From contig CAZYSK010000024.1 of assembly GCA_964649415.1 (NCBI GenBank), forward strand, positions 4,711 through 68,710: 64,000 nt of DNA. The letters are read 5' to 3'. Made by a program: the position numbers and the translations under genes. This document shows, piece by piece, positions 22,977-44,798 of the stretch (its first letter is position 1; each line of letters starts with the position of its first letter). The notes under the pieces were generated by a model. That model had not been told where the DNA came from. It was given only the letters and a program-made list of their open reading frames with translations, and did not search any database. Source of the stretch: an uncultured Anaerolineales bacterium. Lineage in GTDB: Bacteria; Chloroflexota; Anaerolineae; B4-G1.

Positions 22977-23005
22977 TTGACATACTTGTGGTTTTCGTGT
23001 ATAAT
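22977..23005 (+). promoter_or_regulatory. Consensus sigma70 promoter (TTGACA-17 nt-TATAAT) for the C1 operon
   Basis: TTGACA 22977-22982, 17-nt spacer, TATAAT 23000-23005. The first CDS starts about 390 nt downstream. Confidence 0.6.
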
Positions 23006-23011
23006 AGAGAA

Positions 23012-23397
23012 AATCCAATATTCCACTGCGCATACACTAGCTCCAACGAGCATTGCCGCATTGAGTAGCGTCCTCGTCTCATCAAGCGCGCTTTTTGGTA
23101 ACAGCTTTGGCCTCAGCGGCCTAAGCGTGGGGAACGTCTGGACGGCTCAATACAGCTACCCTGCGGATGGGATTGCGCGGCTGTTTAGCATGATCCGCTT
23201 AACCACAGCCGAGCCGCCGAGAGCCTTCTCTCAGCGGTTCGGTTGTTTGCATGTAGGGAGGTGATATAGCCACATAAGTACAGTCAAACAGGTAATGGTT
23301 AGGTAACTCAAGCAGGTTTCAGGGATTCCGATTAGGGTTGGAACGTTTGCGTATTTCAGGCTCTGAAGGGCCGACACAAATACCTGGAGGTGTTAAC
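23012..23397 (+). promoter_or_regulatory. Long (~385 nt) untranslated leader; candidate riboswitch/attenuator of unknown class
   Basis: No credible ORF. It contains several GC hairpins and a terminator-like stem at 23209-23250. Confidence 0.4.
23209..23250 (+). terminator. Terminator-like stem-loop inside the leader (attenuator candidate)
   Basis: CCGAGCCGCCGAGAG (23209-23223), loop CCTT, CTCTCAGCGGTTCGG (23228-23242). That is 15 positions with 1 wobble and 1 mismatch, followed by TTGTTTGC. Confidence 0.4.
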
Positions 23398-25176
23398 GTG
23401 GAGAAGGAACTTCTAGCGACCGTTATGGCGGTGACTTCGAACGTCGAGTATACGACCAGTGACCGGATTGAGGCCTTGACCAAGGGGCACGGGATGTTGA
23501 ACCTCTCGGCCCTGTGTGCGGCGAACGCGATGACACACGAGATTCTGCAGGGACGCGACATCGCCCTCTCAGATGCGAACCTTGAAGCGCTGCCTCTCGA
23601 CATGGTGGTTGAGGCAGGTGTGAATGCGGCTATGGAGGCGGGTGCAGCGCCTGCGAACGCGGCCCTGATTACTGCCTCTCTGCTCCTGATTGCGGGCACG
23701 GAATCGCGGGCCGGTGTACCCGCTGGCAACCGCAAGCTTGGGGCAATGGCTCGCCTGAAGGCAGGCGCGGGCCGCTCCGGCGTGGCAGCCATTCCCACAT
23801 CCAAGCTGACGAACAAGGTTTCGGGTTTTGCTGCCGTGCAGGCACTGTATGACGCGATGCAGAAAGGTGAGTTGGTCCGGGTAGACGGCGCTGCCGTGCC
23901 CGCCTTCGTGGCCGGTGGTGCTCCCATGGGCCACAGCGTGTTGGGCGAGGACATGGTCTACGTGGATCTGTGCATGAACGGCGGCAAGATCGCGGTGGAC
24001 GCGATGATGAAGGCCTACCACGGTGTGGGCATCAGCGCCAGCCCGATCCAGTGCGCCATGCTCGCCGCTGCCGCCGTGCTGGAGATCATCAACCCGGACG
24101 GGATGATCGGAGCCGAGTACGGCACTTTCTTTGTCGAGGGCACCGGCTATCTGGCGGGCAAGGGCGCGGCCGAGGCTGCCGGGCTCCCAGAGAAGCTCCA
24201 CCTGCGCGGCACGGGCACAGAGTACGACACAGCCGCGTTCATAGGCGGCATGGGCATGATCCTCAAGGACGTGGGTGCCCCCTCGGTGATCGGCATGATG
24301 ACGCTGAACGAGATACTGGCCGCTTTCGCGGAGGGCCCGATGATCGGGGCTGGCTTCGGCGGTGGCCCGGTCAATCCTCCGCTGGCTCACCTGTTGGCTG
24401 ACTGCGTCATCTCCATGAATTTGCTGATCGACCACAAGGGTGATGTGGAGGCATGCGCCGACGTCATCCACGAGGTCAAACTCACGCAGTGGATTGACGG
24501 TGAGATCGCCGCCTGCTGCACCAACACGATCGCTCGCAAGGCCGAGCAGGTCCGCCGCGGCCCGGTCACGGAGACCATCATCAAGGCCACCGACGGCATC
24601 CGGGCCAATGCTATCTACCGCCGGGCGAAGTTCGCTTACGACGAACTGAGCGCCGGCAAGGAACTGGCCGACGTGTGCGTGGCGCTGGATCAGGCGCGCA
24701 AGGAGAAGGTCGAGGCGAGCGCCGGCGTGATCCTGAGCGGTTTCTTCGGCAAGGAAATCGCCATCAAGTTCACCAAGCTGGAGGGTGGAGCGCGTCGCGA
24801 TCACCCCTTCGCCCAGTCCTACTGGGGCTTCGACGCTGACATTGACACCGTGGTGACCGTAGACGGTGAGGAGTTCGTGATGGAGGGTCTGAGCCACAAG
24901 GTGATCCCCGACGCCGTGCTCAACAAGAAAGCCGAGCTGTCATTGCCGATCACCGTCGCGGCAGCAGTGGCGCAGGAACTCATGTACGTCGGCTGCTGCA
25001 CGATTGACGCGGTCATTCCGGCCGTCGTGGCCGCGGCTATGGGCAAGTACACCTGGAAGGACGCGGGGAAGAAGGCGGAGAAGGCCGCCCGAATCACGTG
25101 CTCCATCCCAGGGGCGAAGGACACAGCCCGCGAGGTGGCCCGGCTCGCCGTGCGGATCTTGAAGGATCTGGAGTAG
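23398..25176 (+). CDS. Uncharacterised Ala/Gly-rich 592-aa protein; first gene of the C1/Lar operon
   Basis: GTG 23398 lies 7 nt after GGAGG. It appears soluble (no long hydrophobic stretch). Two vicinal Cys-Cys dipeptides: IAACCTNT (TGCTGC 24514-24519) and YVGCCTID (TGCTGC 24994-24999). No Walker A, Rossmann or LarA-like motif recognised. Confidence 0.7.
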
Positions 25177-25230
25177 TCTCCGGAGTTTGTCTTGCTCCGG
25201 GCAGTCCTAAGACCTGTCGCATCTGAGTAA

Positions 25231-25262
25231 GGGTAGGGGTGCGGGGGATCGTACCCCTACCC
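25231..25262 (+). other. 10-bp GC hairpin between the first two operon genes
   Basis: GGGTAGGGGT (25231-25240) pairs with ACCCCTACCC (25253-25262). No T-tract follows. Confidence 0.4.
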
Positions 25263-25315
25263 ATCTGGTGGTCGATCTCACACGGCCCTGAGCACTGGCG
25301 AGACGCTAACCTCTG

Positions 25316-25822
25316 ATGTTGCTTTTGGTGAATGTGGATGACATATCGGGTGAGGTGATCCCCCACGTCATTGATGGATTGATGGCGCGGGGGGCTATGA
25401 GTGTGCACGTGGTTCAGGCATTCACCAAGAAGGGGCGGCTGGACTATCTATTCTTCATAGACGCCCCGGAGGAGCGGGCCGAGGGATTGGGAGGCTACCT
25501 GGCCTGCGAGTTGGGCACGTTGGGTGTACGGGTCTTCGATCCACGCCACATCCGCTTCGAGTACCGCATGCAGCGGGTGCGACTGAGCGCTCAGGTGGAC
25601 GTGCGTGTGGAAGCGCTCGTGAGCGTGAAGGAGGTCCTCGGCCACGATGGGAGCGTTGTCCACGTCAAGGCCGAGTGGGGTGATCTGGAGGCGGCACTGA
25701 CCCAGCTTGAGCGGGCCGGTTGCCCTGTCTCCCTCACTGCACTCAAACGACTCGTCGAGCAGGCCGTGCTGGGGCGGAGGGACTGTTCCCTCTCGAACGT
25801 TCAGGCAGAGTATCTACCTTGA
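25316..25822 (+). CDS. Stand-alone LarC C-terminal-domain-like protein (DUF111 C-terminal half)
   Basis: 168 aa. LLLVNVDDISGEVIPHVIDGLMARGAMSVHVVQAFTKKGRLDYLFFID...TLGVRV aligns by eye with the in-window LarC segment [48 protein letters not shown]...TIGVRM. The N-terminal LarC domain is absent. Confidence 0.65.
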   Translation: MLLLVNVDDISGEVIPHVIDGLMARGAMSVHVVQAFTKKGRLDYLFFIDAPEERAEGLGGYLACELGTLGVRVFDPRHIRFEYRMQRVRLSAQVDVRVEALVSVKEVLGHDGSVVHVKAEWGDLEAALTQLERAGCPVSLTALKRLVEQAVLGRRDCSLSNVQAEYLP

Positions 25823-25839
25823 GTTGCAAGGAGATGATA

Positions 25840-26715
25840 ATGAAGCATATACTGATCTACTTCGACATGAACAAGCGGCCGAGTCCGTTCGACATCTTGT
25901 TCGCATACGACGTGGGCTTCGACATCGTGCTGCCGTTCAGCGGGGTGACGATGGAGGAGATCACGCCACTGGTGCAGGATGCCATGTTCCCCCGTGGACC
26001 GAAGGGGGCGACGTACACGACGATCTTCTTCGGGGGCAGCGACCTTGACGCCGTGGAGAAAATGGCCAAGAAGGCCAAGAAGACGATGTTCCCGCCGTTT
26101 CAGCTTTCCATCGCTGTTGACCCGAAGGGCGCTCACACGACGTCCTCAGCGATCGTAGCGAAGGTTTTAGAGGCCTTGGCCAGCAAGGGTGAGACGTTGG
26201 AGGGCAAGAAGGCCGCCGTTCTAGGGGGCTGTGGCCGTGTGGGCCGGGTGGCGAGCCGAATCCTGGCCAGGGAAGGCGTCGAGGTCACGATGTTGGACAT
26301 CGTCGAAGACGTGACCTCGCTTGCTCTTCAGATTTCTGAGATGGTGGAAGGGAAAGTGACGGGCGTGGTGGCCAAGTCGCCGCAGGAGATAGTGGCGGCA
26401 GCGAAAGAGTGCGAGATCGTGGTCTCTGCCGGCCCGGCGGGTGTCGAGCTGGTACCTGAGGAGTTCGTTCCCCAGTTGGAGAAGTGCATGGTCGCGGCCG
26501 ACGTGAACGCGGTCCCGCCGGCGGGCATCGCGGGCATCAAGGCGAAGTATGACAAGCGGGAGAAGAACGGGATTTTGACCATTGGTGCGCTCGCTGTCGG
26601 GAACCTCAGGAACAAGATCGAGGCCAAGATGCTGAAGACAGCGATGGAATCGGAGGGGGCGTTCCTGGACTACACCAACGCCTTCGAGTTCGCCAAGGAG
26701 TTGGCGGACATTTGA
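25840..26715 (+). CDS. NAD(P)-dependent methylene-tetrahydromethanopterin dehydrogenase (MtdA/MtdB family)
   Basis: 291 aa from ATG 25840 (AAGGAG upstream). FDMNKRPSPFDILFAYDVG, TTIFFGGSD, PFQLSIAVDPKGAHTTSSA, GKKAAVLGGCGRVG and IGALAVGNLRNKIE parallel Methylobacterium MtdA/MtdB. Confidence 0.85.
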   Translation: MKHILIYFDMNKRPSPFDILFAYDVGFDIVLPFSGVTMEEITPLVQDAMFPRGPKGATYTTIFFGGSDLDAVEKMAKKAKKTMFPPFQLSIAVDPKGAHTTSSAIVAKVLEALASKGETLEGKKAAVLGGCGRVGRVASRILAREGVEVTMLDIVEDVTSLALQISEMVEGKVTGVVAKSPQEIVAAAKECEIVVSAGPAGVELVPEEFVPQLEKCMVAADVNAVPPAGIAGIKAKYDKREKNGILTIGALAVGNLRNKIEAKMLKTAMESEGAFLDYTNAFEFAKELADI

Positions 26716-26890: not shown

Positions 26891-28129
26891 GTGCGCACTG
26901 GCATTCTCATCGTCGGACTTAGCACACGCGCCATCGCCGAGTCGGCGGTGAGGGGGGGGCATCAGGTCGTCACACTGGACTACTTTGGCGATCGGGATCA
27001 GCGGGAGCTGGTGGAGAACCACGCGCTCCTGCGAGATCCTACACTGATTGGTGAGACCTGCCCCTCCTTCAGCGCCGCAGCACTGGAGCAAGCCAGCCGT
27101 TCTCTTGACTTCGAGTCAGTTGTGTACATCTCCAATCTGGAGAACCATCCCGAGGTGGTTGAAGAACTGGCACAGGGGCGCGTTCTGCTCGGGAACGCGC
27201 CCACTGTGCTCTATCAGGTGCGCGACTGGCGCACGCTGCGGGCCTTCTGCCATGAGGTTGGGGTTGCCTGTCCGCACACGTTGCTAGCTGGAGAGGGGGC
27301 GGCGGCTGACGGGGGCAACCGCTGGCTACGCAAGCCGGTCCGCAGCGGCGGAGGGCACGGCGTCCAGCCGTGGGATGGCAGGCCGTTAGGCCAGTCTCAC
27401 TTCCTGCAGGCGTATGTTGAAGGTCGGCCTGCGTCTGCGGCCTTCGTGGCCGATGGGAAGCGGTGCGTGGTGATCGGCCTGACGGAGCAACTCATTGGGC
27501 GGGGTGAGCTGGGGGCACAGGGCTTCGGCTGGTGTGGCAACATCCTTCCGTTGGCAGGGGGGGACAACGAATCGGGAAAGGAACGAAGGGGGGAAGGGGC
27601 GCAGCGGACTGCGCCTTGGAAGGACGAAGGGCTCGCCGTATTGGAGGAAGTGGAGCGGATGGCTGCTGCGCTCACTCGCCGCTTCGGTTTGCGGGGTGTG
27701 AACGGGCTGGATTTGATCGTGGCGCGCGACCGAGACGGTGGTCCACGCGCGATCCTGGTGGAGGTCAACCCCCGCTACACGGCCTCGATGGAATTGGTCG
27801 AGCGAGCATACGGGCTTAACATCTTCTCGCTGCACGTGGAAGCGATGGACGGTCGATTGCCTGACTTTCGGCTGGCGGAGCACTTGTACGCTCGGGGTCT
27901 GTGGTTTGCCAAAGGGATCGTCTACGCCAGGCGACCGGTGACTATGCCGGAGACAGGCGGGTGGGTGAAACGGGGCAGGCGGGACATTCCCTTCCCCGGC
28001 GAGCGGATCGAGGCTGGCCATCCCGTGTGTACGGTTCTAGCAGAAGGTGAGGGGCGAGATACGTGCTGGCAGCATTTGTTGGCGGGCGTCGCAGACGTCC
28101 GGCAGGAGATCGGAGACCTGACAGAGTGA
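26891..28129 (+). CDS. ATP-grasp domain protein of the C1-cofactor cluster (Orf17/OrfY- or MfnD-like)
   Basis: 412 aa from GTG 26891. ATP-grasp core: WLRKPVRSGGGHGV, FLQAYVEG, GVNGLDLIV, LVEVNPRYTASMEL. It carries the family B insert at 27559-27619. The exact substrate cannot be told from sequence. Confidence 0.7.
   Translation: MRTGILIVGLSTRAIAESAVRGGHQVVTLDYFGDRDQRELVENHALLRDPTLIGETCPSFSAAALEQASRSLDFESVVYISNLENHPEVVEELAQGRVLLGNAPTVLYQVRDWRTLRAFCHEVGVACPHTLLAGEGAAADGGNRWLRKPVRSGGGHGVQPWDGRPLGQSHFLQAYVEGRPASAAFVADGKRCVVIGLTEQLIGRGELGAQGFGWCGNILPLAGGDNESGKERRGEGAQRTAPWKDEGLAVLEEVERMAAALTRRFGLRGVNGLDLIVARDRDGGPRAILVEVNPRYTASMELVERAYGLNIFSLHVEAMDGRLPDFRLAEHLYARGLWFAKGIVYARRPVTMPETGGWVKRGRRDIPFPGERIEAGHPVCTVLAEGEGRDTCWQHLLAGVADVRQEIGDLTE
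27559..27619 (+). repeat. Composite repeat B (module B1 27559-27592 + hairpin module B2 27596-27619), in-frame in the ATP-grasp CDS
   Basis: GGGGGACAACGAATCGGGAAAGGAACGAAGGGGG is identical to 42664-42697. GGGGCGCAGCGGACTGCGCCTTGG is identical to the units at 44644-44742. It is translated as GDNESGKERRGEGAQRTAPW. Confidence 0.85.
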
Positions 28130-28143
28130 AGGAGACGAGGCGG

Positions 28144-28488
28144 ATGAGTACATCCGTGAGCAAGTGTTTCACGTTGATTACCGGGCGCACGCCTGAACAG
28201 GGGAAAGGGTTGCACGTGGGCAAGGATTCGGACGTGTACCGCGAGGCAACCGCTGCGGTGATGATGGGCGAAGGGGACATGGCCCACCTTGGCGTCAAGG
28301 AGGGGCAGATTGTCCGAGTCCGGACGGCGGCAGGACAGGTGGAAGTGCCGGTGCGGGCGGAGTCGCTTCCTGAGGGGCTGTTGTTTATGCCGATGGGGCC
28401 GATGGCGAATGTGCTGATTGGGACGGGCACGGAGGGGACGGGCATGCCCCACTTCAAGGGATTGGAGGCGGAGGTGGAGGCAGCATGA
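28144..28488 (+). CDS. fwdD: Formylmethanofuran dehydrogenase subunit D (molybdopterin-dinucleotide-binding-domain protein)
   Basis: 114 aa. FTLITGRT.EQG, GEGDMAHLGVKEGQIVRVRTAAGQVEVPV and GLLFMPMGP are typical of FwdD/FmdD. The stop overlaps the fwdB ATG (ATGA). Confidence 0.8.
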   Translation: MSTSVSKCFTLITGRTPEQGKGLHVGKDSDVYREATAAVMMGEGDMAHLGVKEGQIVRVRTAAGQVEVPVRAESLPEGLLFMPMGPMANVLIGTGTEGTGMPHFKGLEAEVEAA

Positions 28489-29783
28489 CGCGGACGCAGG
28501 AGTCCAACGTGTTCGAGAACGTGGTGTGTTCTTTCTGTGGCTGTCTGTGCGACGACCTGGCGGTAGAGGTGGATGGGGGGCGTATCACGCGGGTGCGCAG
28601 GGCATGCGCCAACGGGCGTGGGCTCTTCACGCACTACGATCCATCGCCCCGGCGACCTCGCGTGAATGGCCGGGAGGTGGATTGGGACGAAGCGGTTGCG
28701 GAGGCGGCACGCATCCTAAGCGCATCTGACAGCCCGTTGATCTATGGCCTCAGCTCCACGGCCACGGAAGCTCAGCGCAAGGCGGTGGAACTGGCGGACC
28801 GGCTGGGGGCGATGATAGACACCACGTCGTCGGTGTGCCACGGCCCCACAGGGCTGGCGATGCAGGCTGTGGGCGAGCCGACGTGTACACTGGGGGAGGT
28901 GCGGAACCGCGCTGATCTGCTGGTTTTCTGGGGCTGCAACCCAGCGGTCTCCCACATCCGCCACTTCTCGCGATATTCGGTGACGCCCAAGGGTATGCTC
29001 ACTCCCAATGGGCGCCGGGATCGGACCTTGGTCGTCGTGGACGTGCGGCCCACCGGCAGCACGAAGATGGCCGACCTCTTCCTGCAGGTGAAGCCGGGTT
29101 CCGACTTCGAGGTGCTGACGGCGCTGCGAGCGCTGGTAGGTGGGAAGGAACTCGACGCGGAGGCGGTGGGCGGCGTCCCGCTGTCGCAACTGCGAGACCT
29201 CGCGGAGCGGATGAAGACGTGCCGTTTCGGGGTGGCGTTTATGGGCATGGGGCTGACGCAGACCGGAGGGCGGGATCTCAACGTGAGCGAGCTTTTCACG
29301 TTAGTGGCCGAGTTGAACGCGCACACGCGTTTCACCGTCATCCCGATGCGAGGACACGGGAACGTGGCCGGAGCGGATCAGGTGGTGACCTGGCAGAGTG
29401 GCTATCCGTTCGCTGTCAGCTACTCACGTGGCTATCCCCGCTATGGCCCCGGCGAGTTCTCGGCGGTGGACGTGTTGGCACGAGGGGAGGCGGACGCGGC
29501 CCTGATTGTGGCCTCAGACCCGGTGGCCCATTTCCCGAAGGCGGCCGCCCAGCAATTGGAGCGCATCCCGGTCATCGCTCTCGACCCGATGCCGAGCCTG
29601 ACGACGGAGGTCGCGCAGGTGGTCTTTCCTACCGCCTGCTATGGCGTGGATGCGGCCGGCACGGCCTATCGCATGGATGGCGTGCCCATCCGGCTCCGGC
29701 CGGTGCTCCCTTCGGTGCGTCCGACCGACGAGAAGGTCTTGGGTGATATCAGTGCCTTAGTGCAGCCTGGGATGGTGATGTGA
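28485..29783 (+). CDS. fwdB: Formylmethanofuran dehydrogenase subunit B
   Basis: 432 aa. N-terminal Fe-S motif VVCSFCGCLCDD...ACANG. TTSSVCHGPTGLAMQ carries Cys118-His119 (TGC 28836-28838). RNRADLLVFWGCNP, IPMRGHGNVAG and GTAYRMDGVPIRL align closely with archaeal FwdB as I recall it. Confidence 0.9.
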   Translation: MTRTQESNVFENVVCSFCGCLCDDLAVEVDGGRITRVRRACANGRGLFTHYDPSPRRPRVNGREVDWDEAVAEAARILSASDSPLIYGLSSTATEAQRKAVELADRLGAMIDTTSSVCHGPTGLAMQAVGEPTCTLGEVRNRADLLVFWGCNPAVSHIRHFSRYSVTPKGMLTPNGRRDRTLVVVDVRPTGSTKMADLFLQVKPGSDFEVLTALRALVGGKELDAEAVGGVPLSQLRDLAERMKTCRFGVAFMGMGLTQTGGRDLNVSELFTLVAELNAHTRFTVIPMRGHGNVAGADQVVTWQSGYPFAVSYSRGYPRYGPGEFSAVDVLARGEADAALIVASDPVAHFPKAAAQQLERIPVIALDPMPSLTTEVAQVVFPTACYGVDAAGTAYRMDGVPIRLRPVLPSVRPTDEKVLGDISALVQPGMVM

Positions 29784-31471
29784 TGCTAGGAATCCTGAAC
29801 GGTCGAGTATACGACCCGATAAATGGGGTGAACGGCGAGGTCAAGGACCTGTGGATTGAGGACGGGCGGGTGGTTGCCCCGAGTGACGTGGATCGTGGCG
29901 GCGCGCAGACCATAGATGCGACGGACCTGGTGGTGATGCCCGGCGGTGTGGACGTCCACAGCCACTTTGCTGGGGCCAAGGTGAACTCGGGGCGCAAATT
30001 CCGTCCAGAGGATCACCGTGGGCACGTGCGGGCGCGGGGGAGTACGCCGGATGGGAGTGATACACGATGGCGTGGGGGGCGGATGGGCATGACCCGGTCC
30101 GGCGTGGGCTACACGACCCCAACGACGCATCTGACCGGATACCTCTACGCGGAGATGGGCTACACCACGGTGATGGAGGCTGCCTCTGCTCCCCTGGTGG
30201 CCCGCCATACCCACGAGGAGTTCGACGATGTCCCCATCTTGGACAAAGGCGCGTACATCACGATGGGCAACAATCACTTCATCATGCGCTGCATCCGTGA
30301 TGGGGAGCGGGAGAAGGCCCGGGACTACGTGGCCTGGTTGCTGGACGCGACCAAGGGTTACGCGATCAAGGTCGTCAACCCGGGTGGGGTAGAGAACTGG
30401 AAATGGGGCCAGAACGTGGCGCGCCTGGATGACGAAGTCATCGGTTTCGGTGTCACCCCCAGGCAGATTCTCACCACGCTGTCCTGGATCAATGACGACC
30501 TCGGCCTGCCTCACGTGCCGCACCTCCACAGCCTGAACCTGGGGCAGGCGGGGAACGTGCCCTCGACGATCGAGGTGATTGAGGCGCTCGACGGGCGACG
30601 GGCGCATATCTGTCACCTCCAGTTCTTCAGCTACGGCGGCGAGCCCGGCAAGATGCCGCGCTCCGGCGCGGTGGAGATCGCCCAGGCGGTGAACGCGCAC
30701 CCCCTCCTCACCGTGGATGTGGGGCAGGTGATCTTCGGCGAGGCAACGACGATGACGTCCGATGGCCCCCTCCAGTACCGGTTGCATCAGTTGACGGGCA
30801 ACAAGTGGTTGAACGACGATGTGGAGGGAGAGACGGGCGGCGGGCTGGTGCCCGTGCTCTACAAGCGGTCTAATGCGTTCAACGCGGTGCAATGGCTGAC
30901 CGGCATGGAGCTCTTCCTGCTCATCGAGGATCCGTGGCGGGTCTTCCTCACCACGGACCACCCGAATGCCGGCCCGTTCTTCTACTATCCGCGCGTGATC
31001 AAACTGTTGATGGACCGTGACTACCGGGCAGAGGCGTTGGCGGGCATATCGGCCCGGGTGCGAAGGGGGGCGCTGCTTCCCGAACTGGATCGGGAGTACT
31101 CGCTGTACGAAATCGCGATTATCACCCGAGCGGGCACGGCTCGCGTGCTGGGTCTCAAGAACAAGGGCCATCTGGGGGTGGGGGCCGACGCTGACGTGAC
31201 CATCTATGCACCGCTGGAGGATAAAGAGGAGATGTTCGCCCATCCTCGATACGTGCTCAAGGATGGTGAGGTGGTGGTGAAGGACGGCCGGCTCGTGAGC
31301 GAGCGACCGGGGCGCACGTTCTACGTCAGTCCACCGCACGATCCGGGGATCGAGGCGGACATCCGCGCCCACTTCGAGACGTGCTATAGCATGTCGTTCG
31401 ACAACTACCCGGTCCAGCCAGAGTATCTGCCCCACGGCGACGTTGTGGCCTGTGCAGGGGGCGGACATTGA
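29780..31471 (+). CDS. fwdA: Formylmethanofuran dehydrogenase subunit A (amidohydrolase)
   Basis: 563 aa. VVMPGGVDVHSHF (the HxH metal site), HVPHLHSLN, HICHLQF, FLTTDHPN. The start (GTG 29780 or ATG 29783) overlaps the fwdB stop. Confidence 0.9.
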   Translation: MMLGILNGRVYDPINGVNGEVKDLWIEDGRVVAPSDVDRGGAQTIDATDLVVMPGGVDVHSHFAGAKVNSGRKFRPEDHRGHVRARGSTPDGSDTRWRGGRMGMTRSGVGYTTPTTHLTGYLYAEMGYTTVMEAASAPLVARHTHEEFDDVPILDKGAYITMGNNHFIMRCIRDGEREKARDYVAWLLDATKGYAIKVVNPGGVENWKWGQNVARLDDEVIGFGVTPRQILTTLSWINDDLGLPHVPHLHSLNLGQAGNVPSTIEVIEALDGRRAHICHLQFFSYGGEPGKMPRSGAVEIAQAVNAHPLLTVDVGQVIFGEATTMTSDGPLQYRLHQLTGNKWLNDDVEGETGGGLVPVLYKRSNAFNAVQWLTGMELFLLIEDPWRVFLTTDHPNAGPFFYYPRVIKLLMDRDYRAEALAGISARVRRGALLPELDREYSLYEIAIITRAGTARVLGLKNKGHLGVGADADVTIYAPLEDKEEMFAHPRYVLKDGEVVVKDGRLVSERPGRTFYVSPPHDPGIEADIRAHFETCYSMSFDNYPVQPEYLPHGDVVACAGGGH

Positions 31472-31491
31472 CCGTGCGTCCAGGACACTTG

Positions 31492-32061
31492 ATGAGCATC
31501 GCCTGGGGAGTCACGGGCGGTGGTCATTTTCTGCAGGAGTGCGTCGACTTGGTTCGGGAGCTCGGTGAGGCGGAATTTGGGGGTGCGGCCAAGATGGCCG
31601 CGGTCCGAGTGGACGTCTTCCTCTCCCTCGCGGGTGAGGAGGTACTGCGCATGTATGGCCTGGCGGACGCGGTGCACCGGTCAGCCAGGGCGGTAGTGCG
31701 GGACAACATGAGCAGTGCGCCCGTCGTGGGTCGCTTTGCCCAACCCGACCGGTATCGCGCCCTGGTCATTGCCCCGGCCACGTCGAATACAGTGGCCAAG
31801 TTTGTCTTGGGCATCTCCGATTCCCTGATCACCAACCTGTTTGCCCAGGCCGGGAAAAACCGGGTGCCGACTCTGGTGCTACCCACGGATCTCGCGCCCG
31901 AGATGGACACCGTCACGCCCAGTGGAAGGACGATCAAGGTCTACCCGCGCGAGGTCGACCTGGAGAACACGGCCAGGCTGCGCGAGTTCCCGAACGTAGC
32001 GGTGGTGGAAGATCTGGAGGGACTTCGATGTCGGTTGCAGGGCCTAGATACCTGTTCGTAA
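31492..32061 (+). CDS. AfpA/DmrB-like flavoprotein (candidate dihydromethanopterin reductase)
   Basis: 189 aa from ATG 31492. MSIAWGVTGGGHFL and LVIAPATSNTVAKFVLGISDSLITNL are typical of the flavoprotein (PF02441-type) fold. Function is inferred from cluster context. TTG 31468 is an alternative start. Confidence 0.65.
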   Translation: MSIAWGVTGGGHFLQECVDLVRELGEAEFGGAAKMAAVRVDVFLSLAGEEVLRMYGLADAVHRSARAVVRDNMSSAPVVGRFAQPDRYRALVIAPATSNTVAKFVLGISDSLITNLFAQAGKNRVPTLVLPTDLAPEMDTVTPSGRTIKVYPREVDLENTARLREFPNVAVVEDLEGLRCRLQGLDTCS

Positions 32062-33380
32062 CCGGCAAGCTGGCGGCGGATGCGCTCACGGCGGCGCTGG
32101 AGCGGATGGCGCCCGATTTCGAGTACGAGGTGGCCGTGCTCGACTACTCGGTGGCGGCTCTGATGAGTACTGACTGGATCGCACGGCAACTGGTGGATGC
32201 CCGGCGGTGCGAGGAGATTATGATCTCCGGGTGGTGTCAGGGCGATCTATCCGTCATCGAGGAGCGGCTGGGGGTTCCGGTGACTCGCGGCCCCAAGGAT
32301 CTCAAGGACTTGCCCGCCCTATTCGGTCGCGAACGGGTGATGCCAGGCTACGGCCAGTACCGGGTGAAGATCCTGGCCGAGGTCGTGGACGCTCATCGGT
32401 TGCCCTGGGAGGACATTCTGACCCGGGCCGAGTACTACCACGCCAGCGGAGCCGACATCATTGACCTGGGGTGTCCGGTGCAGGGCGGTTTCCCCCACGT
32501 GGGCGAGGTCGTGAGGAAGCTGAAGGAGCGCGGCTTTCTCGTCAGTGTGGACACCTTTGATCACGAGACGATCCTGCACGCCGATGCGGCGGGCGTGGAC
32601 TTCCTGCTGAGTGTCAACTCGAAGAACATCGAACTGGCCCCGCGTCTTGGGTGCAAGGTGGTGGTTATCCCCGATTTCGACCAGGGGCTGCCTTCCCTGG
32701 AACGCAATATTGCCCGGCTGGAGGAATGGGGGGTTCCGTATATCGTTGACCCGGTGCTGAATCCCATCAGCTTCGGTTTCACGGAATCCATCCATCGGTT
32801 CTACGAGGTGAGGCAGCGATACCCGGATGCAGAGATGCTCATGGGGTTGGGGAACCTGACCGAGCTGACCGAGGCGGACAGCACCGGCATCAACGCCGTG
32901 ATGGCCGGGATGCTTTCGGAGTTGGAGATAGACTACGTCCTGACCACAGAGGTGATCAGTTGGGCCAGAGGAGCGGTGCGCGAACTGGATCTGGCGCGCA
33001 AGCTGATGTACTACTCTCGTCAGAACCAGGTTCTGCCCAAGCACGTGGACAGCAGCCTGGTGACGGTTAAGGACCCGCTGCACGGATACACGTACTATGG
33101 CGAAGCAGATCTACGGCTGATGCAATCCCAGGTGCGGGATCGGAACTTCCGTATCTTCACCGACGACGAGCAAATCACCGTGTTCAACAGTGAGATGTTT
33201 GTCGTGGGCACCGATCCGGATGAGGTTTTCGCCCGCCTTGGCGTGAGCGAGGGCTCACACGCCTTCTACCTGGGGCGGGAGTTGGAGCGGGCGGCTCTGG
33301 CTGTGAGGCTGGGCAAGAGATACACGCAGGAGGAGCCGCTGCGATGGGGGTACTTGAGCGATCGGATTCGGAAGGGCTGA
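32028..33380 (+). CDS. Dihydropteroate-synthase-like pterin-binding protein with N-terminal extension (Orf20/MJ0301-type H4MPT biosynthesis enzyme)
   Basis: 450 aa. RYLFVTGKLA N-domain, then a pterin-binding barrel (GADIIDLGC, VSVDTF, LLSVNS, IVDPVL, GLGNLTELTEADSTG). GGAGGG lies 6 nt before ATG 32028. Confidence 0.75.
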   Translation: MSVAGPRYLFVTGKLAADALTAALERMAPDFEYEVAVLDYSVAALMSTDWIARQLVDARRCEEIMISGWCQGDLSVIEERLGVPVTRGPKDLKDLPALFGRERVMPGYGQYRVKILAEVVDAHRLPWEDILTRAEYYHASGADIIDLGCPVQGGFPHVGEVVRKLKERGFLVSVDTFDHETILHADAAGVDFLLSVNSKNIELAPRLGCKVVVIPDFDQGLPSLERNIARLEEWGVPYIVDPVLNPISFGFTESIHRFYEVRQRYPDAEMLMGLGNLTELTEADSTGINAVMAGMLSELEIDYVLTTEVISWARGAVRELDLARKLMYYSRQNQVLPKHVDSSLVTVKDPLHGYTYYGEADLRLMQSQVRDRNFRIFTDDEQITVFNSEMFVVGTDPDEVFARLGVSEGSHAFYLGRELERAALAVRLGKRYTQEEPLRWGYLSDRIRKG

Positions 33381-33399
33381 TATTTGGAGGTAGTAGAGG

Positions 33400-34284
33400 A
33401 TGCACATCAACGGCGTTGAGATTGAGGACACCTTCGCCGAGGCGTTCAAGATGCGGGCTGCACGGTTGCTCATCACTGCGATTAACCCGCAGTGGGCGAT
33501 GACGGCGGCGCAAGTGAGCACGGGTTTCGCCACATCGGTCATCGCATGTGGCTGCGAGGCCGGCATCGAAGGGGTCGTCCCGTCGGACGTGACACCCGAT
33601 GGCCGCCCCGGCGTGAGTATTCTCATCTTCACAATGGGGCCAAAGGGGATGAAGGATCAGTTGATGCGCCGCGTGGGCCAGTGTATCATGACTTGTCCCA
33701 CGACGGCCTGCTTCAACGGCCTGGAGGGCGAGGAGTGGCTCAAGATCGGCGGGACGCTGCGCTACTTCGGCGATGGGTTCCAGGCGAGCAAGCTCGTGGG
33801 GGGGCGGAGGTTCTGGCGGATACCGGTGATGCAGGGCGAGTTCCTGGTGGAAGAGCAGTTCGGCATGAAGAAAGCCGTTGGCGGCGGGAACTTCCTTATC
33901 CTGGGCGAAAGCGTCGAGGCCACGCTTGGGGCGGCCGAACGGGCGGTGGAGGCGATGCACGCAGTGGAGGGGGTGGTGATGCCGTTCCCCGGTGGCATCG
34001 TACGCAGTGGCAGCAAGACGTCGTCACAGTACAAGTTCCTGCATGCCTCGACCAACACCGCGTACTGTCCTAGCCTCCGTCGCCAGACCGACAGCGCGCT
34101 GCCGGAGGGCGTCAATTCCGTGCTGGAGATCGTGATCGATGGGCTGGATGAGGATGCGGTGAGAGAGGCGACGCGGGTGGGCGTCGATGCGGCGTGCCGG
34201 CCCGGCATCGTGCGCATCTCGGCGGGCAACTACGGTGGCACTTTGGGGCAATACCAGATTCATCTGCAGGAGTTGTGGAAGTGA
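33400..34284 (+). CDS. ftr: Formylmethanofuran:tetrahydromethanopterin N-formyltransferase
   Basis: 294 aa. VEIEDTFAEAF.MRAARLLITA, GFATSVIACGCEAGIE, RIPVMQGEFLVEE, GGGNFLILG, MPFPGGIVRSGSK, ISAGNYGG.LG match Ftr/FhcD. Confidence 0.9.
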   Translation: MHINGVEIEDTFAEAFKMRAARLLITAINPQWAMTAAQVSTGFATSVIACGCEAGIEGVVPSDVTPDGRPGVSILIFTMGPKGMKDQLMRRVGQCIMTCPTTACFNGLEGEEWLKIGGTLRYFGDGFQASKLVGGRRFWRIPVMQGEFLVEEQFGMKKAVGGGNFLILGESVEATLGAAERAVEAMHAVEGVVMPFPGGIVRSGSKTSSQYKFLHASTNTAYCPSLRRQTDSALPEGVNSVLEIVIDGLDEDAVREATRVGVDAACRPGIVRISAGNYGGTLGQYQIHLQELWK

Positions 34285-35171
34285 GGAGCACTACACTGCG
34301 TTTGAGGGACTCGGTCACTCTCCCCGTCGAGGCGGAGAGTATATCGCCCGACCGGTTTGCCGGGCTCAGTCAGGAGGAGGTGGCGGCGCTACCACTCCTG
34401 TATGGGCGGCGACCGGTGACTGTCGGCGATCTGTTCGTGGTGGAAGGGGCGGACGTTGCGGACATTCAGGTGGGACGCACTTCAGAAAGTGCGTCCCACC
34501 TGGTTGGTCGTGCGTCCGATGGGGAGGAGATCCTCCTCGAAGGTGATCTCAGTCACGTGAAGCGGATCGGGCAGGGGATGGCCAGTGGACGGATCACCAT
34601 CCGAGGCAATGTCGGCATGCATCTTGGAGCCGAGATGAGCGGGGGGGAGATCGTCGTCCACGGGAACGCCGCGGCGTGGATGGGCGCGCACATGTCCGGT
34701 GGGGTCATCCGCGTGCGGGGGGACGTCGGCCCGATGGCCGGCGCTGCCTATCCGGGAGAGAAGCGCGGTATGCGCGGCGGTTCTATTCTCGTGGAAGGAA
34801 GCGCCGGGCCGCGGGTGGGGGAGCGCATGCGGCGCGGGCTGATCGCCGTCCAGGGCGACGTGGGAGAGTTCTCCGGGGTGCGGATGATCGCCGGATCGCT
34901 CTTCGTGTTTGGCACGTTGGGGCCGAGGGCGGGCGCTGGCATGAAGCGCGGCACGATCGTCGCGCTGGGATCTATTGAGGGCGACCTGCTGCCTGTGTTC
35001 CACTATGCCTGCTCCTATCAGCCGGCCTTCCTGCGCACTTATCTGCGCCACCTGCGCGGGTGGGGTTTGCCCGTCACGTCAGATCACGTCGAGGGAGTCT
35101 TTCGCCGCTACGTTGGTGACATCACGACTCTGGGAAAAGGGGAGATTCTGGTCTATGATCGGCGTCAATGA
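34281..35171 (+). CDS. fwdC: Formylmethanofuran dehydrogenase subunit C
   Basis: 296 aa from GTG 34281 (GTGA overlap with ftr). VTVGDLFVVEG, then the repeated G-x-x-x-G beta-helix motifs (GRITIRGNVGMHLGAEMSGGEIVVHGNAAAWMGAHMSGGVIRVRGDVG...). It carries the family A insert at 34449-34506. Confidence 0.85.
   Translation: MRSTTLRLRDSVTLPVEAESISPDRFAGLSQEEVAALPLLYGRRPVTVGDLFVVEGADVADIQVGRTSESASHLVGRASDGEEILLEGDLSHVKRIGQGMASGRITIRGNVGMHLGAEMSGGEIVVHGNAAAWMGAHMSGGVIRVRGDVGPMAGAAYPGEKRGMRGGSILVEGSAGPRVGERMRRGLIAVQGDVGEFSGVRMIAGSLFVFGTLGPRAGAGMKRGTIVALGSIEGDLLPVFHYACSYQPAFLRTYLRHLRGWGLPVTSDHVEGVFRRYVGDITTLGKGEILVYDRRQ
34449..34506 (+). repeat. Repeat family A copy 1 (58 nt, 16-bp hairpin), in-frame in fwdC
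   Basis: 58/58 identical to 39417-39474. The core is CAGGTGGGACGCACTT-CAGA-AAGTGCGTCCCACCTG (34467-34502). It is translated as ADVADIQVGRTSESASHLV. Confidence 0.9.
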
Positions 35172-36126
35172 ACGCGCAGTGGAGATCGTGCGGCGGATGA
35201 TCGCCGACGCGGAGGGATTGGGGTTGGCGGTGACGCGACTGCCGAACGGGACCACGGTGATCGATGCCGGTGTGCGGGTGCCCGGCTCGTTGGAGGCGGG
35301 ACGGCTGTTTGCTGAAGTATGCCTGGGGGGACTTGGCCAGGTTGGTTTCGCTGAGCTCGATTTCGACGACATGTGGCTGCCGGGAGTTTCCGTCTCGGTG
35401 AGCCACCCAGCGGTGGCGTGCATGGCGTCGCAGTATGCGGGGTGGTCGCTCGAGGCCAAGACCGAGAAGGGAAAGTACTTCGCGATGGGCTCCGGTCCAG
35501 CGCGGGCGCTTTACGCCGGGGAGCCGATCTTCGAGCGGCTGGTGATCCGGGACGAAGCCGATGTGGCAGTCCTGGCACTGGAGGGGCACGAGTTGCCGCC
35601 GGAGGTGGCAGCGGACAAGGTGGCCGAGAAGTGCGGGGTCTCTCCCGATGCGCTCTATCTTCTGGTTGCGCCTACCGCCAGCGTGGTGGGCTCGGTGCAG
35701 ATCGCTGCGCGTGTGGTGGAGACTGGGTTGCACAAGATGTTGGAGGTGTGCGACGGGGAAGACCTTGACATCGCTACGGTGGTGTCTGGCTTCGGCACCT
35801 GTCCCCTAGCGCCCGTCGCGGACGACGACCTGCGGGCCATCGGGCGCACCAACGACGCCGTGCTCTACGCTGGTCGGGCATGGTACACGATGAAGGCGGA
35901 CGACGCGCAGATCGAGGAGATGATTGACTGTTTACCCTCGTCGGCGTCACGGGACTACGGAACCTCCTTCTATGAGCTCTATCAGCGCTACAACGGTGAT
36001 TTCTACAAGATTGACCCGCTGCTCTTCAGTCCGGCCGAGGTGTTTATCAACAACCTGGGCAGTGGCCGCACGTTCCACGCCGGGCGCGTCAACGGCCGAA
36101 TGCTAAGGAAGGTGCTTCTGGAGTGA
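35155..36126 (+). CDS. mch: Methenyltetrahydromethanopterin cyclohydrolase
   Basis: 323 aa. Near-collinear with Methylobacterium/archaeal Mch: RMIADAE, LACMASQYAGW, FAMGSGPARA, GSVQIAARVVE, GRTNDA..YGG, SSASRDYG.F.E....YNGDFY.ID..LFSPAEV. Confidence 0.92.
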   Translation: MIGVNERAVEIVRRMIADAEGLGLAVTRLPNGTTVIDAGVRVPGSLEAGRLFAEVCLGGLGQVGFAELDFDDMWLPGVSVSVSHPAVACMASQYAGWSLEAKTEKGKYFAMGSGPARALYAGEPIFERLVIRDEADVAVLALEGHELPPEVAADKVAEKCGVSPDALYLLVAPTASVVGSVQIAARVVETGLHKMLEVCDGEDLDIATVVSGFGTCPLAPVADDDLRAIGRTNDAVLYAGRAWYTMKADDAQIEEMIDCLPSSASRDYGTSFYELYQRYNGDFYKIDPLLFSPAEVFINNLGSGRTFHAGRVNGRMLRKVLLE

Positions 36127-37927: not shown

Positions 37928-38003
37928 GGCAGTCGGCAAAGCAGCAAATCGGCAGAGGGGAGATTGTTTGACACGGTCGCGAGGTGCGGGAGGAACATCG
38001 GGT

Positions 38004-40070: not shown

Positions 40071-40131
40071 ATTGGTACATTGGTACATTGGTAGATTGGT
40101 AGATTGGTACATTGGTACATTGGTCAATCGG
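40060..40131. repeat. Octanucleotide tandem array [(TAGATTGG)2(TACATTGG)2]x2 + TCAATCGG
   Basis: Nine 8-nt units from 40060 to 40131. The second unit contains the larE stop codon TAG (40068-40070). The array fills the larE-larB spacer. Confidence 0.9.
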
Positions 40132-40143
40132 AGTGTGATATAG

Positions 40144-40887: not shown

Positions 40888-40915
40888 AAGGATTACTCTC
40901 AACGAGGGGTGACAG

Positions 40916-44670: not shown

Positions 44671-44742
44671 AGGAGCGGGGCGCAGCGGACTGCGCCTTGG
44701 TAGAGGAGCGGGGCGCAGCGGACTGCGCCTTGGTAGAGGAGC
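44644..44742 (+). repeat. Three perfect tandem 33-nt units of hairpin module B2 (GGGGCGCAGCGGACTGCGCCTTGGTAGAGGAGC)
   Basis: Units at 44644-44676, 44677-44709 and 44710-44742, then a degenerate start of a fourth unit. Each has the GGCGCAG-CGGA-CTGCGCC hairpin followed by TTGGTAG. Confidence 0.9.
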
Positions 44743-44798
44743 GGGGTGAAGCGGTGAATCCGCGAGGAGAAAGGGTCGGGCCACGACTGGGCCTCAAT

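Follow-up and report, generated by a model that had tools for sequence, protein, structure and literature searches.

The window analysed here, a stretch of 64,000 nucleotides from an uncultured Anaerolineales bacterium, carries a 22-kb co-directional operon of H4MPT/methanofuran genes on the forward strand. The operon is headed by gene X (23398-25176), which encodes a 592-aa orphan protein proposed below to be a client of the nickel-pincer cofactor, and by a second gene (25316-25822), which encodes a divergent, stand-alone LarC2-like protein of 168 aa and is referred to as larC2 in the following. The open reading frame of gene X extends from 23338 to 25176. Its actual start was assigned to the GTG at 23398, because the sequence GGAGGTG (23386-23392) lies just 5' of this codon, and because the homologues start with MEKE at the same codon. 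The original prediction, made before this analysis from the nucleotide sequence alone, gave the coordinates of this first gene and of its two Cys-Cys dipeptides exactly.

The two leading genes are followed by a gene for an MtdB-like methylene-H4MPT dehydrogenase with an Mpt_N domain (25720-26715, actual start probably near 25855) and by an H4MPT/methanofuran module (26891-39095), whose genes code for an ATP-grasp protein, a FwdD-like protein (28063-28488), FhcB/FwdB, FhcA/FwdA, a DmrX-like flavoprotein, a DHPS-like MptH, Ftr, FhcC, Mch, MptN, a CitG-like protein and an NTP_transf_2 protein. Next come the lar genes for nickel-pincer nucleotide biosynthesis (39129-42115), which are larE (39129-40070), larB (40144-40887) and a full-length larC (40916-42115) encoding both LarC1 and LarC2. 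The tail of the operon (42119-45611) contains genes for a second NTP_transf_2 protein, a sodium:solute symporter and an AP_endonuc_2/CbiR-like TIM-barrel protein. All these genes are on the forward strand, and the presence of larE, larB and larC in the same co-directional array bears out the earlier statement that the pair heads an operon that also makes NPN. The operon contains no gene for a LarA, AKR or OCD client and no Fae, and DUF2193 is absent from the window. That the operon is an H4MPT/methanofuran C1 cluster, that the X family is widespread among methanogens and that the transcript has a riboswitch-like leader RNA had been overlooked in the original prediction.

A sigma-70 consensus promoter (TTGACA-17-TATAAT, 12/12; 22977-23005, forward strand) is located ~390 nt upstream of gene X. 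Downstream of it on the same strand lies a riboswitch-like aptamer (23154-23221) of the form GCUACCC-NN-CGGA-N-GGGA...GGCUGU...AUCCGC...ACAGCC-GAGCYGCC, which includes a helix b and a 6-bp kissing-loop/pseudoknot helix. The structure is backed by covariation: in 60 distinct copies 93.6% of the cells were paired and nine pairs were changed on both sides, none of 500 shuffles reached the observed score, and slid controls scored far lower. The 5' arm of a terminator-like hairpin with a U-rich tail (23205-23253, forward strand; MFE -51.9 kcal/mol, z -3.6) overlaps ACAGCC, the 3' strand of the aptamer, and the hairpin is therefore a putative expression platform; the same layout is repeated at other loci. 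The leader RNA was found upstream of X, DUF2193 or fhcB in H4MPT clusters, occasionally in tandem copies. Neither the leader in the window nor those of five other loci had a match in Rfam 15 at E ≤ 1. As a covariation-backed, conserved aptamer in the 5' leaders of related genes, the RNA at 23154-23253 is a strong candidate for a new riboswitch class. Further downstream, the spacer between X and larC2 contains, as read from the sequence, a perfect 10-bp GC-rich hairpin with the arms GGGTAGGGGT and ACCCCTACCC, a 12-nt loop and no U tail (25231-25262, forward strand), and a weaker terminator-like site was noticed near the end of X (25167-25184).

The product of larC2 corresponds, by homology to LarC, to the half of the LarC cyclometallase that binds CTP, CMPylates P2TMN and has a hexameric core. 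It matched the Pfam model Ni_insertion (PF01969) at profile positions 248-364 of 375 (E 2.6e-18) and passed the NCBIfam LarC2 model (NF052512) with 63.6 bits (cutoff 50), whereas the N-terminal nickel-binding domain LarC1 was absent by both Pfam and NCBIfam from this protein of just 168 aa. In BLASTP it aligned solely to residues 257-338 of the in-window LarC. This result and the two profile matches agree with the alignment by eye in the original prediction, which was limited to the C-terminal half of LarC. The N-x-D-D, K-K-G-R and T-L-G-V-R motifs common to LarC are retained, and the best PDB sequence match is the stand-alone archaeal LarC2-like protein MK0293 of Methanopyrus kandleri (3C19). 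The protein is divergent, scoring 64 bits vs 145 bits for the LarC2 domain of the in-window LarC. The same applies to the stand-alone LarC2 proteins found beside X in general (35-64 bits vs 120-145 bits for canonical LarC2 domains); the Thermoleophilia orthologues, with 42-46 bits, fall under the LarC2 cutoff. Thus larC2 encodes a protein that shares its profile and motifs with LarC/LarC2 (L. plantarum LarC2 crystal structures; M. thermoacetica LarC cryo-EM, PMC13510736) but differs from LarC in lacking LarC1, in its constant location beside X and, in the window, in its coexistence with a complete LarC.

In line with the original prediction, which could place protein X in no recognisable family, searches of Pfam and of PDB sequences with X gave no matches, and the NCBIfam search gave nothing beyond a spurious 16-bit match. 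The AF2 model of X (pLDDT 90.5, pTM 0.91) is a compact, mostly helical globule with a beta-sheet subdomain at residues 454-496. A Foldseek comparison of a predicted model, as had been proposed with the original prediction, yielded no useful match in the PDB (best E 0.16, TM ≤ 0.15). An exhaustive HMMER scan of 1.84 billion representatives detected 178 X proteins in ~16 full-length clusters and no link to any larger family. Identity is 77-93% across Chloroflexota and Thermoleophilia and 55-72% to Synergistota, Desulfobacterota and Firmicutes, and 48% between the bacterial clade and a large archaeal clade (Methanothrix, Methanomicrobiales, Archaeoglobus). X occurs in abundance in Methanothrix and Methanomicrobiales, both important sources of methane, and is present in many uncultured anaerobic bacteria with 'archaeal' H4MPT/methanofuran genes. 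X can thus be described as a small, very conserved, undescribed family, for which the model confidently predicts a new fold. In some sources the archaeal homologues carry the name 'Methylthioribose-1-phosphate isomerase', which found no support in the profile and fold searches and was treated as a misannotation.

The neighbourhoods of X were read within 10-kb flanks rather than in whole genomes. A stand-alone larC2 was located at most 200 bp from X in 44 of the 46 bacterial loci, frequent gene orders being larB-larC1-X-larC2 and X-larC2-larB-larC1, and X was often placed between larC1 and larC2. In distant X clades (35-40% identity) larC2 was kept, and at times larB and larC1 as well, while at most loci larE was absent from the stretch read. 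The larC gene near X encodes LarC1 alone in every bacterial locus read other than the window, and a full-length LarC alongside a stand-alone LarC2 was seen, among the bacterial loci read, in the window only. A stand-alone LarC2 beside a LarC1-only larC therefore usually represents the C-terminal half of a LarC that is divided over two genes. The earlier description of the second gene as a truncated cyclometallase module was correct in that the protein consists of LarC2 alone with no LarC1. As a general statement, an extra truncated LarC module is ruled out, because elsewhere the neighbouring larC is LarC1-only and the LarC2 protein represents the missing half. In archaea, a full-length larC with both LarC1 and LarC2 domains directly follows X in four of the five loci read (Methanothrix, Methanofollis, Methanocorpusculum), and in one Archaeoglobus-like locus X has no adjoining larC. 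The Thermoleophilia operons have the layout NikR-CbiQO | X-larC2-larB-larC1-CbiM, in which every gene other than X is a transporter or cofactor-biosynthesis gene. X-larC2 pairs without larB, larC1 or larE within 10 kb occur at Halanaerobium, Acetomicrobium and Desulfovibrionaceae loci, and the contexts of these pairs outside H4MPT clusters gave no consistent functional hint.

X heads H4MPT/methanofuran clusters in Chloroflexota, Desulfobacterota, Synergistota, Clostridia and Thermoleophilia. H4MPT is used by the archaeal hosts of X. In one of them, Methanocorpusculum, the gene immediately upstream of X is mptA, with which H4MPT biosynthesis begins. Taking into account that in Sporomusa and Halanaerobium the genes around X concern sugars or sugar acids instead of H4MPT, the assignment to the H4MPT pathway may apply to only part of the family. 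Other H4MPT clusters are led by DUF2193 (PF09959), an alpha-helical [4Fe-4S]-binding protein of methanogens (PMC12375889). DUF2193 resembles X in being a large, helical and very conserved methanogen orphan, and in bacteria it heads the same H4MPT/methanofuran clusters behind the same leader RNA. It differs from X in that the two are not homologous (hhalign probability 0.7%; no Pfam match of X), in its C-terminal Cys motif, which is absent from X, and in that lar genes were seen beside it only where X is also present. Four X-less, DUF2193-led H4MPT clusters, each of at least 12 kb (L105, L108, L117 and L139), contained no lar genes, and judged from these clusters the lar genes appear to track X rather than H4MPT. 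Literature linking the nickel-pincer cofactor to methanopterin or to methanogens was searched for, and nothing relevant was found.

These observations lead us to propose that X, with its new fold, is a client protein that uses the nickel-pincer cofactor in C1 metabolism linked to H4MPT and methanofuran, a reading to which we assign about an even chance of being right. To our knowledge, only three scaffolds are known for this cofactor: LarA, one ornithine cyclodeaminase and the AKR-fold NphT. X is encoded together with larB, larC and larE with no other nickel-pincer client present, and the lack of a LarA, AKR or OCD gene in the window operon favours X as the client. Hundreds of prokaryotes make the nickel-pincer cofactor yet have no LarA, and new-fold clients have been found through adjacency of this sort (PMC13524815). 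As originally predicted, X thus still appears to be the best candidate for a new NPN- or Ni-dependent enzyme, and its adjacency to LarC2 or LarC turned out to be far stronger than could be seen at that time.

On this proposal, X would be the catalytic component of an enzyme family not described before and would most likely depend on the nickel-pincer nucleotide that LarB, LarE and LarC produce, either as NPN/NPMN or in a nucleotidylated version. The 168-aa protein would serve as a LarC2-type, CTP-dependent activating module. In most X-bearing bacteria a LarC2 of this type is the sole LarC2 seen by the LarC1-only gene and probably completes cofactor synthesis, and its near-constant position beside X suggests that it also passes the cofactor to X or serves as a subunit of X. 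Both the divergence of the protein and the fact that it strictly adjoins X would agree with a role as dedicated maturase or subunit. X itself, by analogy with LarA and NphT, would transfer a hydride reversibly on its substrate ('hidden redox'). Since in the window a putatively riboswitch-controlled H4MPT/methanofuran C1 operon without Fae starts with X, the most likely role of X is to convert a substrate that enters this pathway, or to take part in making the pathway cofactors. The analysis itself establishes the family with its conservation and novel fold, the synteny with lar and H4MPT genes and the leader RNA; cofactor use, hydride-transfer chemistry and pathway role are all things that we infer. 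The proposal can be extended to the effect that X is the missing nickel-pincer client of methanogens and related anaerobes on a fourth, unprecedented scaffold, performing hydride transfer on methanopterin-bound C1 or in methanopterin/methanofuran biosynthesis, with the cofactor delivered by a dedicated LarC2 and the bacterial operon controlled by a new riboswitch for an H4MPT metabolite; this extended version is tentative, and as a whole we regard it as rather doubtful.

By sequence and predicted fold, X is not LarA-, AKR- or cyclodeaminase-like. Membership in the LarA superfamily (NPN-dependent 2-hydroxyacid racemases/epimerases) was not indicated by any PF09861, other Pfam, NCBIfam, PDB sequence or Foldseek PDB match. 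X resembles LarA in being encoded by a lar-adjacent gene, in having some of its loci (in Sporomusa and Halanaerobium) amid sugar-acid or sugar genes, as is the case for LarA homologues, and in probably using the same pincer cofactor for hydride transfer; it is, however, ~170 residues longer, mostly alpha-helical and tied specifically to LarC2. With NphT and the other AKR-fold nickel-pincer hydride transferases (Semersky et al. 2026, PMC13524815) X has in common nearly invariant Lys and His residues. NphT is a ~290-aa TIM barrel of PF00248 with solved structures and shown cofactor binding, whereas X, the cofactor binding of which is predicted, has no Pfam family (PF00248 included), no structural relative in the PDB and a mostly helical model that is not a TIM barrel. 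The ornithine cyclodeaminase type (OCD/mu-crystallin Rossmann fold) was likewise not indicated by any Pfam or structural match. In the family alignment K136, H179 and H268 of X are nearly invariant and constitute candidate cofactor residues; H31, K136 and H179 are jointly lost in P0135, the sole divergent paralogue. Enzymes that depend on nickel-pincer cofactors have a Lys that anchors the cofactor and a His that ligates the nickel within a single pocket.

The same neighbourhoods might mean that X belongs to the cofactor-making machinery, as an accessory, scaffold or carrier for the split LarC (LarC1 + LarC2), or as a modifier of the pincer nucleotide that, for example, makes or holds a dinucleotide form. 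X adjoins the LarC2 domain specifically, rather than any lar gene, its frequent position between larC1 and larC2 and the divergence of the stand-alone LarC2 proteins would suit such a role, and LarC2 CMPylates the NPN precursor, a dinucleotide variant of the cofactor existing in nature (PMC13510736, PMC13524815). However, the characterised synthesis of NPN requires LarB, LarE and LarC only (PMC13510736, PMC13524815), the full-length LarC of the window and of the four archaeal loci makes a split-LarC helper unneeded there, a protein of ~600 aa with 48% identity between bacteria and archaea resembles more an enzyme of central metabolism, and an accessory X would leave the X operons without any client enzyme. 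We consider this explanation unlikely. X might also be an enzyme of H4MPT/methanofuran metabolism or biosynthesis that works without the pincer cofactor, its LarC2-like neighbour having been co-opted from LarC to act as a small subunit that binds nucleotides, or as a regulator. The leading position of X in clusters of five bacterial phyla, the leader RNA that X has in common with DUF2193- and FhcB-led clusters, mptA upstream of X in Methanocorpusculum and the X-larC2 pairs with no other lar genes nearby are consistent with this possibility. It appears distinctly improbable to us in view of the many loci where larB and larC1 adjoin X, some of them with no H4MPT genes in the stretch read, the NikR/CbiMQO nickel-uptake genes framing the Thermoleophilia operon, the complete LarC, not a stripped-down subunit, that follows X in four of five archaeal loci, and the lack of lar genes in the X-less H4MPT clusters.

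Two other explanations concern the nature of protein X (17% Ala, 10% Gly; pI 5.3; GRAVY +0.27). The original prediction laid emphasis on the vicinal cysteines at residues 373-374 (nt 24514-24519) and 533-534 (nt 24994-24999), which would suggest a Cys-based metal-binding or redox protein. Two such dipeptides were observed where ~0.2 are expected by chance, and the second is invariant within the clade of at least 77% identity, but only there: it is replaced by H-T, N-N or A-V, among others, in relatives of 34-53% identity, the archaeal clade included, and the first is F-S in most close homologues. Alignment with distant relatives revealed no cysteine conserved across the family, so the pairs cannot form a catalytic or metal-binding core; this explanation is contradicted at the family level and has very little probability left. 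That X could be embedded in the membrane or act as a transporter, with nickel or a C1 solute as conceivable cargo, is suggested by its GRAVY value, by three 19-residue windows with Kyte-Doolittle values of 1.6-1.9 and by the helical transporters among its weak top Foldseek matches. These matches are at TM ≤ 0.15 and E > 0.1, however, polar or charged residues occur within the hydrophobic stretches, which are rich in Ala, the model forms a compact globule that includes a beta-sheet subdomain, and dedicated transporters (CbiMQO, SSF) have separate genes. From the model, the Foldseek scores and the residue content of the stretches we judged a membrane protein to be highly unlikely.

X as a nickel-pincer client is a concrete, testable candidate in organisms without LarA. 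If confirmed, it would join nickel-pincer chemistry to methanopterin-linked C1 metabolism and would explain the retention of lar genes in these organisms.

For the leader RNA, the closest comparison is with the THF-I and THF-II riboswitches, which are pterin-cofactor sensing leaders of folate genes. Nothing relevant was found in the literature on a methanopterin riboswitch. The candidate described here resembles the THF riboswitches in having a compact pseudoknotted aptamer upstream of one-carbon cofactor or pathway genes, a terminator-type expression platform and occasional tandem copies, but differs from them in sequence and architecture and precedes H4MPT, not folate, genes. Its ligand, once found, could reveal a substrate or product of X and DUF2193.

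The 592-aa orphan protein X is encoded within a plus-strand ORF (23338-25176), where translation starts at a GTG (23398) with a GGAGGTG Shine-Dalgarno sequence ahead of it; the N-terminal M-E-K-E from this codon onward is common to all X homologues. The original prediction, made from the sequence, had the gene coordinates (23398-25176), the product length and both Cys-Cys dipeptides (residues 373-374, nt 24514-24519, and residues 533-534, nt 24994-24999) correct in every particular. X contains 17% Ala and 10% Gly, with a pI of 5.3 and a GRAVY of +0.27, and its two Cys-Cys dipeptides compare with a chance expectation of about 0.2. The prediction that it belongs to no recognisable family was borne out: there was no match in Pfam, NCBIfam or PDB sequences, and when 1.84 billion cluster representatives were scanned exhaustively with HMMER, 178 proteins came up, mostly fragments, with about 16 full-length clusters (587-627 aa) and no larger family connected to them. 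The AlphaFold2 model (pLDDT 90.5, pTM 0.91), built from an alignment of 28 sequences with 34-93% identity, consists largely of alpha-helices, plus a small beta subdomain (454-496), and in a Foldseek comparison with 350,542 PDB chains the best match reached only E 0.16 and TM 0.15. Three scaffolds are known to use the nickel-pincer nucleotide (NPN): LarA, AKR-fold NphT and cyclodeaminase (PMC13524815). Because neither sequence nor Foldseek searches gave a match, X is unrelated to these, and every membership test placed it outside all three. X is thus a true orphan of unprecedented fold and family, and no description of it was found in the literature searched.

The product of the next gene (25316-25822, +, 168 aa) resembles, as had been predicted, only the C-terminal part of LarC: its match in the Pfam nickel-insertion model is confined to the C-terminal third (profile positions 248-364 of 375), it scores 63.6 bits with NCBIfam LarC2 (cutoff 50), and it aligns with the later in-window LarC over residues 257-338 only. 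When ORFs were called throughout the X loci and each was scored against the window proteins, in 44 of 46 bacterial loci a LarC2-like gene turned out to lie no more than 200 bp from X; in the other two the order was larC2-larB-larC1-X and X was frameshifted, respectively. The Thermoleophilia operon reads X-larC2-larB-larC1-CbiM with a divergent NikR-CbiQ-CbiO; larE/larB-larC1-X-larC2 or permutations of it occur in Desulfobacterota, Synergistota, Gracilibacter and Sporomusa. All bacterial larC genes beside X except that of the window encode LarC1 only (250-300 aa, Pfam positions 1-243, 220+ bits on the LarC1 model, no LarC2 domain). The CTP-binding core is LarC2, which CMPylates the precursor; LarC1 then inserts nickel (PMC13510736). 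Since the neighbouring larC is LarC1 only, the stand-alone LarC2 of these bacteria is the other half of a split LarC, and not the "truncated" extra module for which it had been taken. The stand-alone proteins are divergent (35-64 bits, versus 120-145 bits for LarC2 within full-length LarC), and their closest solved relative, MK0293 of Methanopyrus kandleri, likewise stands alone. One distant X clade has the order PNPOx-X-ferredoxin-larC2-(two-component system)-larB-larC1, and others show TetR-larC2-X, radical SAM-larC2-X or, in Bacteroidota, larC2-X. The coupling of X to Lar proteins is therefore family-wide, with larC2 retained even in rare distant clades: among the loci read, X adjoins LarC2 or LarC in almost every bacterial one and in most of the archaeal ones, and larB, larC1 and nickel-uptake genes frequently flank it. 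The 140-nt X-larC2 spacer of the window contains a perfect 10-bp GC-rich hairpin without a U tail (25231-25262, +; GGGTAGGGGT ... ACCCCTACCC), which may stabilise the mRNA or mark a processing site, so that X and the downstream genes are expressed at different levels.

The archaeal clade was represented by P0122, an X homologue (48% identity) on a Methanothrix-like contig (L060:3605-11078, JGI 3300001866) with the order mcrB-mcrD-mcrG-mcrA-X-larC, in which X and a full-length larC follow the mcr genes immediately. With P0122 as query 418 relatives were obtained, from Methanothrix, Methanoculleus, Methanofollis, Methanomicrobium, Methanocorpusculum, Methanolacinia and Archaeoglobus veneficus, one Methanothrix cluster being present on 297 contigs. 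They are either unnamed or labelled "methylthioribose-1-phosphate isomerase", a label that no search backed. In Methanofollis ethanolicus, Methanothrix and Methanocorpusculum a larC with a strong LarC2 domain lies directly 3' of X, often with a 4-nt overlap. The Methanocorpusculum order is mptA-X-larC-frhADGB, mptA encoding the first enzyme of tetrahydromethanopterin (H4MPT) biosynthesis. One Archaeoglobus-like contig carries X without larC. Besides L060, the archaeal loci are L063 and L065-L067. The literature search returned nothing joining nickel-pincer chemistry to methanogens or methanopterin. X is more than a routine orphan in that it occurs in methanogens, is tied to methanopterin metabolism and comes with a new leader RNA.

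In the window, X and the LarC2-like gene stand first in an array of co-directional genes some 22 kb long. They are followed by genes for an MtdB-like dehydrogenase, an ATP-grasp protein, an FwdD-like protein (28063-28488), FhcB/FwdB, FhcA/FwdA, a DmrX-like flavoprotein, DHPS-like MptH, Ftr, FhcC, Mch, MptN, a CitG-like protein and an NTP_transf_2 protein, then by larE, larB and full-length larC, as expected from the prediction that the operon also makes NPN, and finally by genes for a second NTP_transf_2 protein, a sodium:solute symporter and an AP_endonuc_2 TIM-barrel protein. The array is a complete bacterial H4MPT/methanofuran (MFR) C1 module fused to three NPN-making genes; it contains no gene for Fae, LarA, an AKR or ornithine cyclodeaminase. 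Because the FwdD-like small ORF (+), located between the ATP-grasp gene and fhcB, carries a Molydop_binding domain, what the cluster encodes may be a formylmethanofuran dehydrogenase proper, with a pterin, and not the Fhc complex of hydrolase type found in aerobic methylotrophs. The CitG-like triphosphoribosyl transferase and the two NTP_transf_2 proteins (37040-39095 and 42119-43303, +) could, by analogy with CitG/CitX, build the side chain of methanopterin from ribose-phosphate and hydroxyglutarate.

A sigma-70 promoter with 12/12 consensus positions (TTGACA-17-TATAAT, 22977-23005, +) gives X a leader of about 390 nt. When the sequences preceding X were aligned, a conserved 68-nt element emerged (window 23154-23221, +), which lies outside 23398-25822 yet belongs to the unit. 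A 21-nt pattern taken from it matched more than 119 metagenome contigs, about 65 with the full element. The proposed fold is made up of a hairpin, helix b, and a 6-bp loop-loop interaction of two hairpins (pseudoknot). Among 60 distinct copies 93.6% of cells were paired and both sides had changed in 9 pairs, including 7 of the 8 in helix b; none of 500 shuffles reached the observed score, and the covariation score was 0.21 versus at most 0.083 with the partners slid. Since covariation is strong and no Rfam 15 family matched even at E <= 1, we regard the RNA as a candidate for a new class of riboswitch. A strong hairpin and U-rich tract come after it in the window (element to 23253); the 5' arm of this hairpin overlaps the 3' strand of the aptamer, an arrangement like that of expression platforms that terminate transcription. 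From this overlap, ligand binding may weaken the terminator, and the RNA would then be an ON switch. Copies occur at L009:6343, L014:5308, L026:7856, L035:6317 and about 60 metagenome loci (L068-L186), at some in tandem (two or three copies), and almost all lie inside H4MPT/MFR clusters. The gene behind the RNA is DUF2193 at 40 or more loci and X at 19 or more; the RNA also precedes fhcB-fhcA-ftr-fhcC (one locus) and GHMP kinase-larB-larC1-X (two loci). Bacterial X is usually the first gene of a putatively riboswitch-controlled H4MPT/MFR operon.

DUF2193 (PF09959), an alpha-helical [4Fe-4S]-binding methanogen protein with no function assigned (PMC12375889), is about 510 aa long, very conserved, and heads the same bacterial clusters as X with the same leader RNA, usually followed by a DmrX-like flavoprotein (L009:6955-8562, L014:5897-7450, L026:8445-10040, L035:6811-8400, L068:334-1866 and many others). 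Comparison of the two proteins indicated no homology. The window has no DUF2193 gene; in Thermoleophilia RNA-DUF2193-DmrX-MtdB-ATP-grasp-FhcBA comes after X-larC2-larB-larC1. DUF2193 might work as a partner of X or substitute for it. Since no lar genes were seen in four X-less clusters headed by DUF2193 (12 kb or longer), the lar genes travel with X and not with the H4MPT pathway itself.

The best 120 database matches to X are about 593 aa long, 77-93% identical and all "hypothetical protein". In GTDB species genomes X occurs in Anaerolineae and other Chloroflexota, Thermoleophilia, Clostridia, Gracilibacter, Halanaerobium, Synergistota, Desulfobacterota (including the isolate Dethiosulfatarculus sandiegensis), Sporomusa acidovorans DSM 3132 and a single Bacteroidota MAG (35% identity). 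The family is compact, ancient and under strong constraint, with a fold without known relative. Its conserved polar residues are H31, N43, R112, K113, R119, K136, N139, H179, E184, D185, E229, D234, H268, K290, D291, E312, E369, K381, R466, D479 and E527. The emphasis originally placed on the vicinal cysteines was misplaced: the first pair is Phe-Ser in most close homologues, and the second, invariant in the close clade only, is replaced by His-Thr, Asn-Asn, Ala-Val etc. in relatives of 34-53% identity. With no family-wide conserved cysteine in the alignment reaching distant relatives, it is highly improbable that X is a cysteine-based metalloprotein, and the data speak just as strongly against a membrane protein. 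A divergent 627-aa paralogue, P0135 (L055:358-2241, 34% identity), has lost H31, K136 and H179, a joint loss hinting that these residues may work as one unit; it is perhaps a non-catalytic relative helpful in pinpointing functional residues.

The central idea of a new NPN- or Ni-dependent enzyme stands as a reading of the family-wide Lar coupling, from which we infer that X is a nickel-pincer-cofactor client, one with a new scaffold. The system would then work like the known arrangement of client enzyme plus larBCE. Reversible hydride transfer would be the most likely chemistry, since the known clients LarA and NphT perform it; LarC2 may hand the cofactor, possibly still CMP-activated, to X, or may alternatively be a subunit of X. 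As the operon lacks Fae, X might act on C1 units at the level of formaldehyde or methylene-H4MPT; equally, it might catalyse a step in H4MPT or MFR biosynthesis. Substrates may differ across the family, because the Sporomusa and Halanaerobium loci have sugar-acid or PTS contexts. That X is an accessory in cofactor synthesis appears unlikely, and that it is an H4MPT enzyme not using the nickel-pincer cofactor, quite unlikely.

In Thermoleophilia, an MfnA-like PLP-dependent decarboxylase and a B12-binding radical-SAM enzyme resembling the methanopterin C-methylase type are encoded just upstream of the NikR/CbiQO-X-lar operon (L001:4448-7678), which fits a methanofuran/methanopterin biosynthesis neighbourhood. 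Between 50000 and 64000 of the window G+C falls from about 0.63 to 0.52-0.56, and this part, which may be an acquired island, carries sugar-acid catabolism genes (UxuA, two enolase-superfamily dehydratases, PfkB kinase, Zn-ADH, RpiR regulator, ABC sugar transporter). The Sporomusa X locus (L045) is likewise flanked by enolase-superfamily genes.
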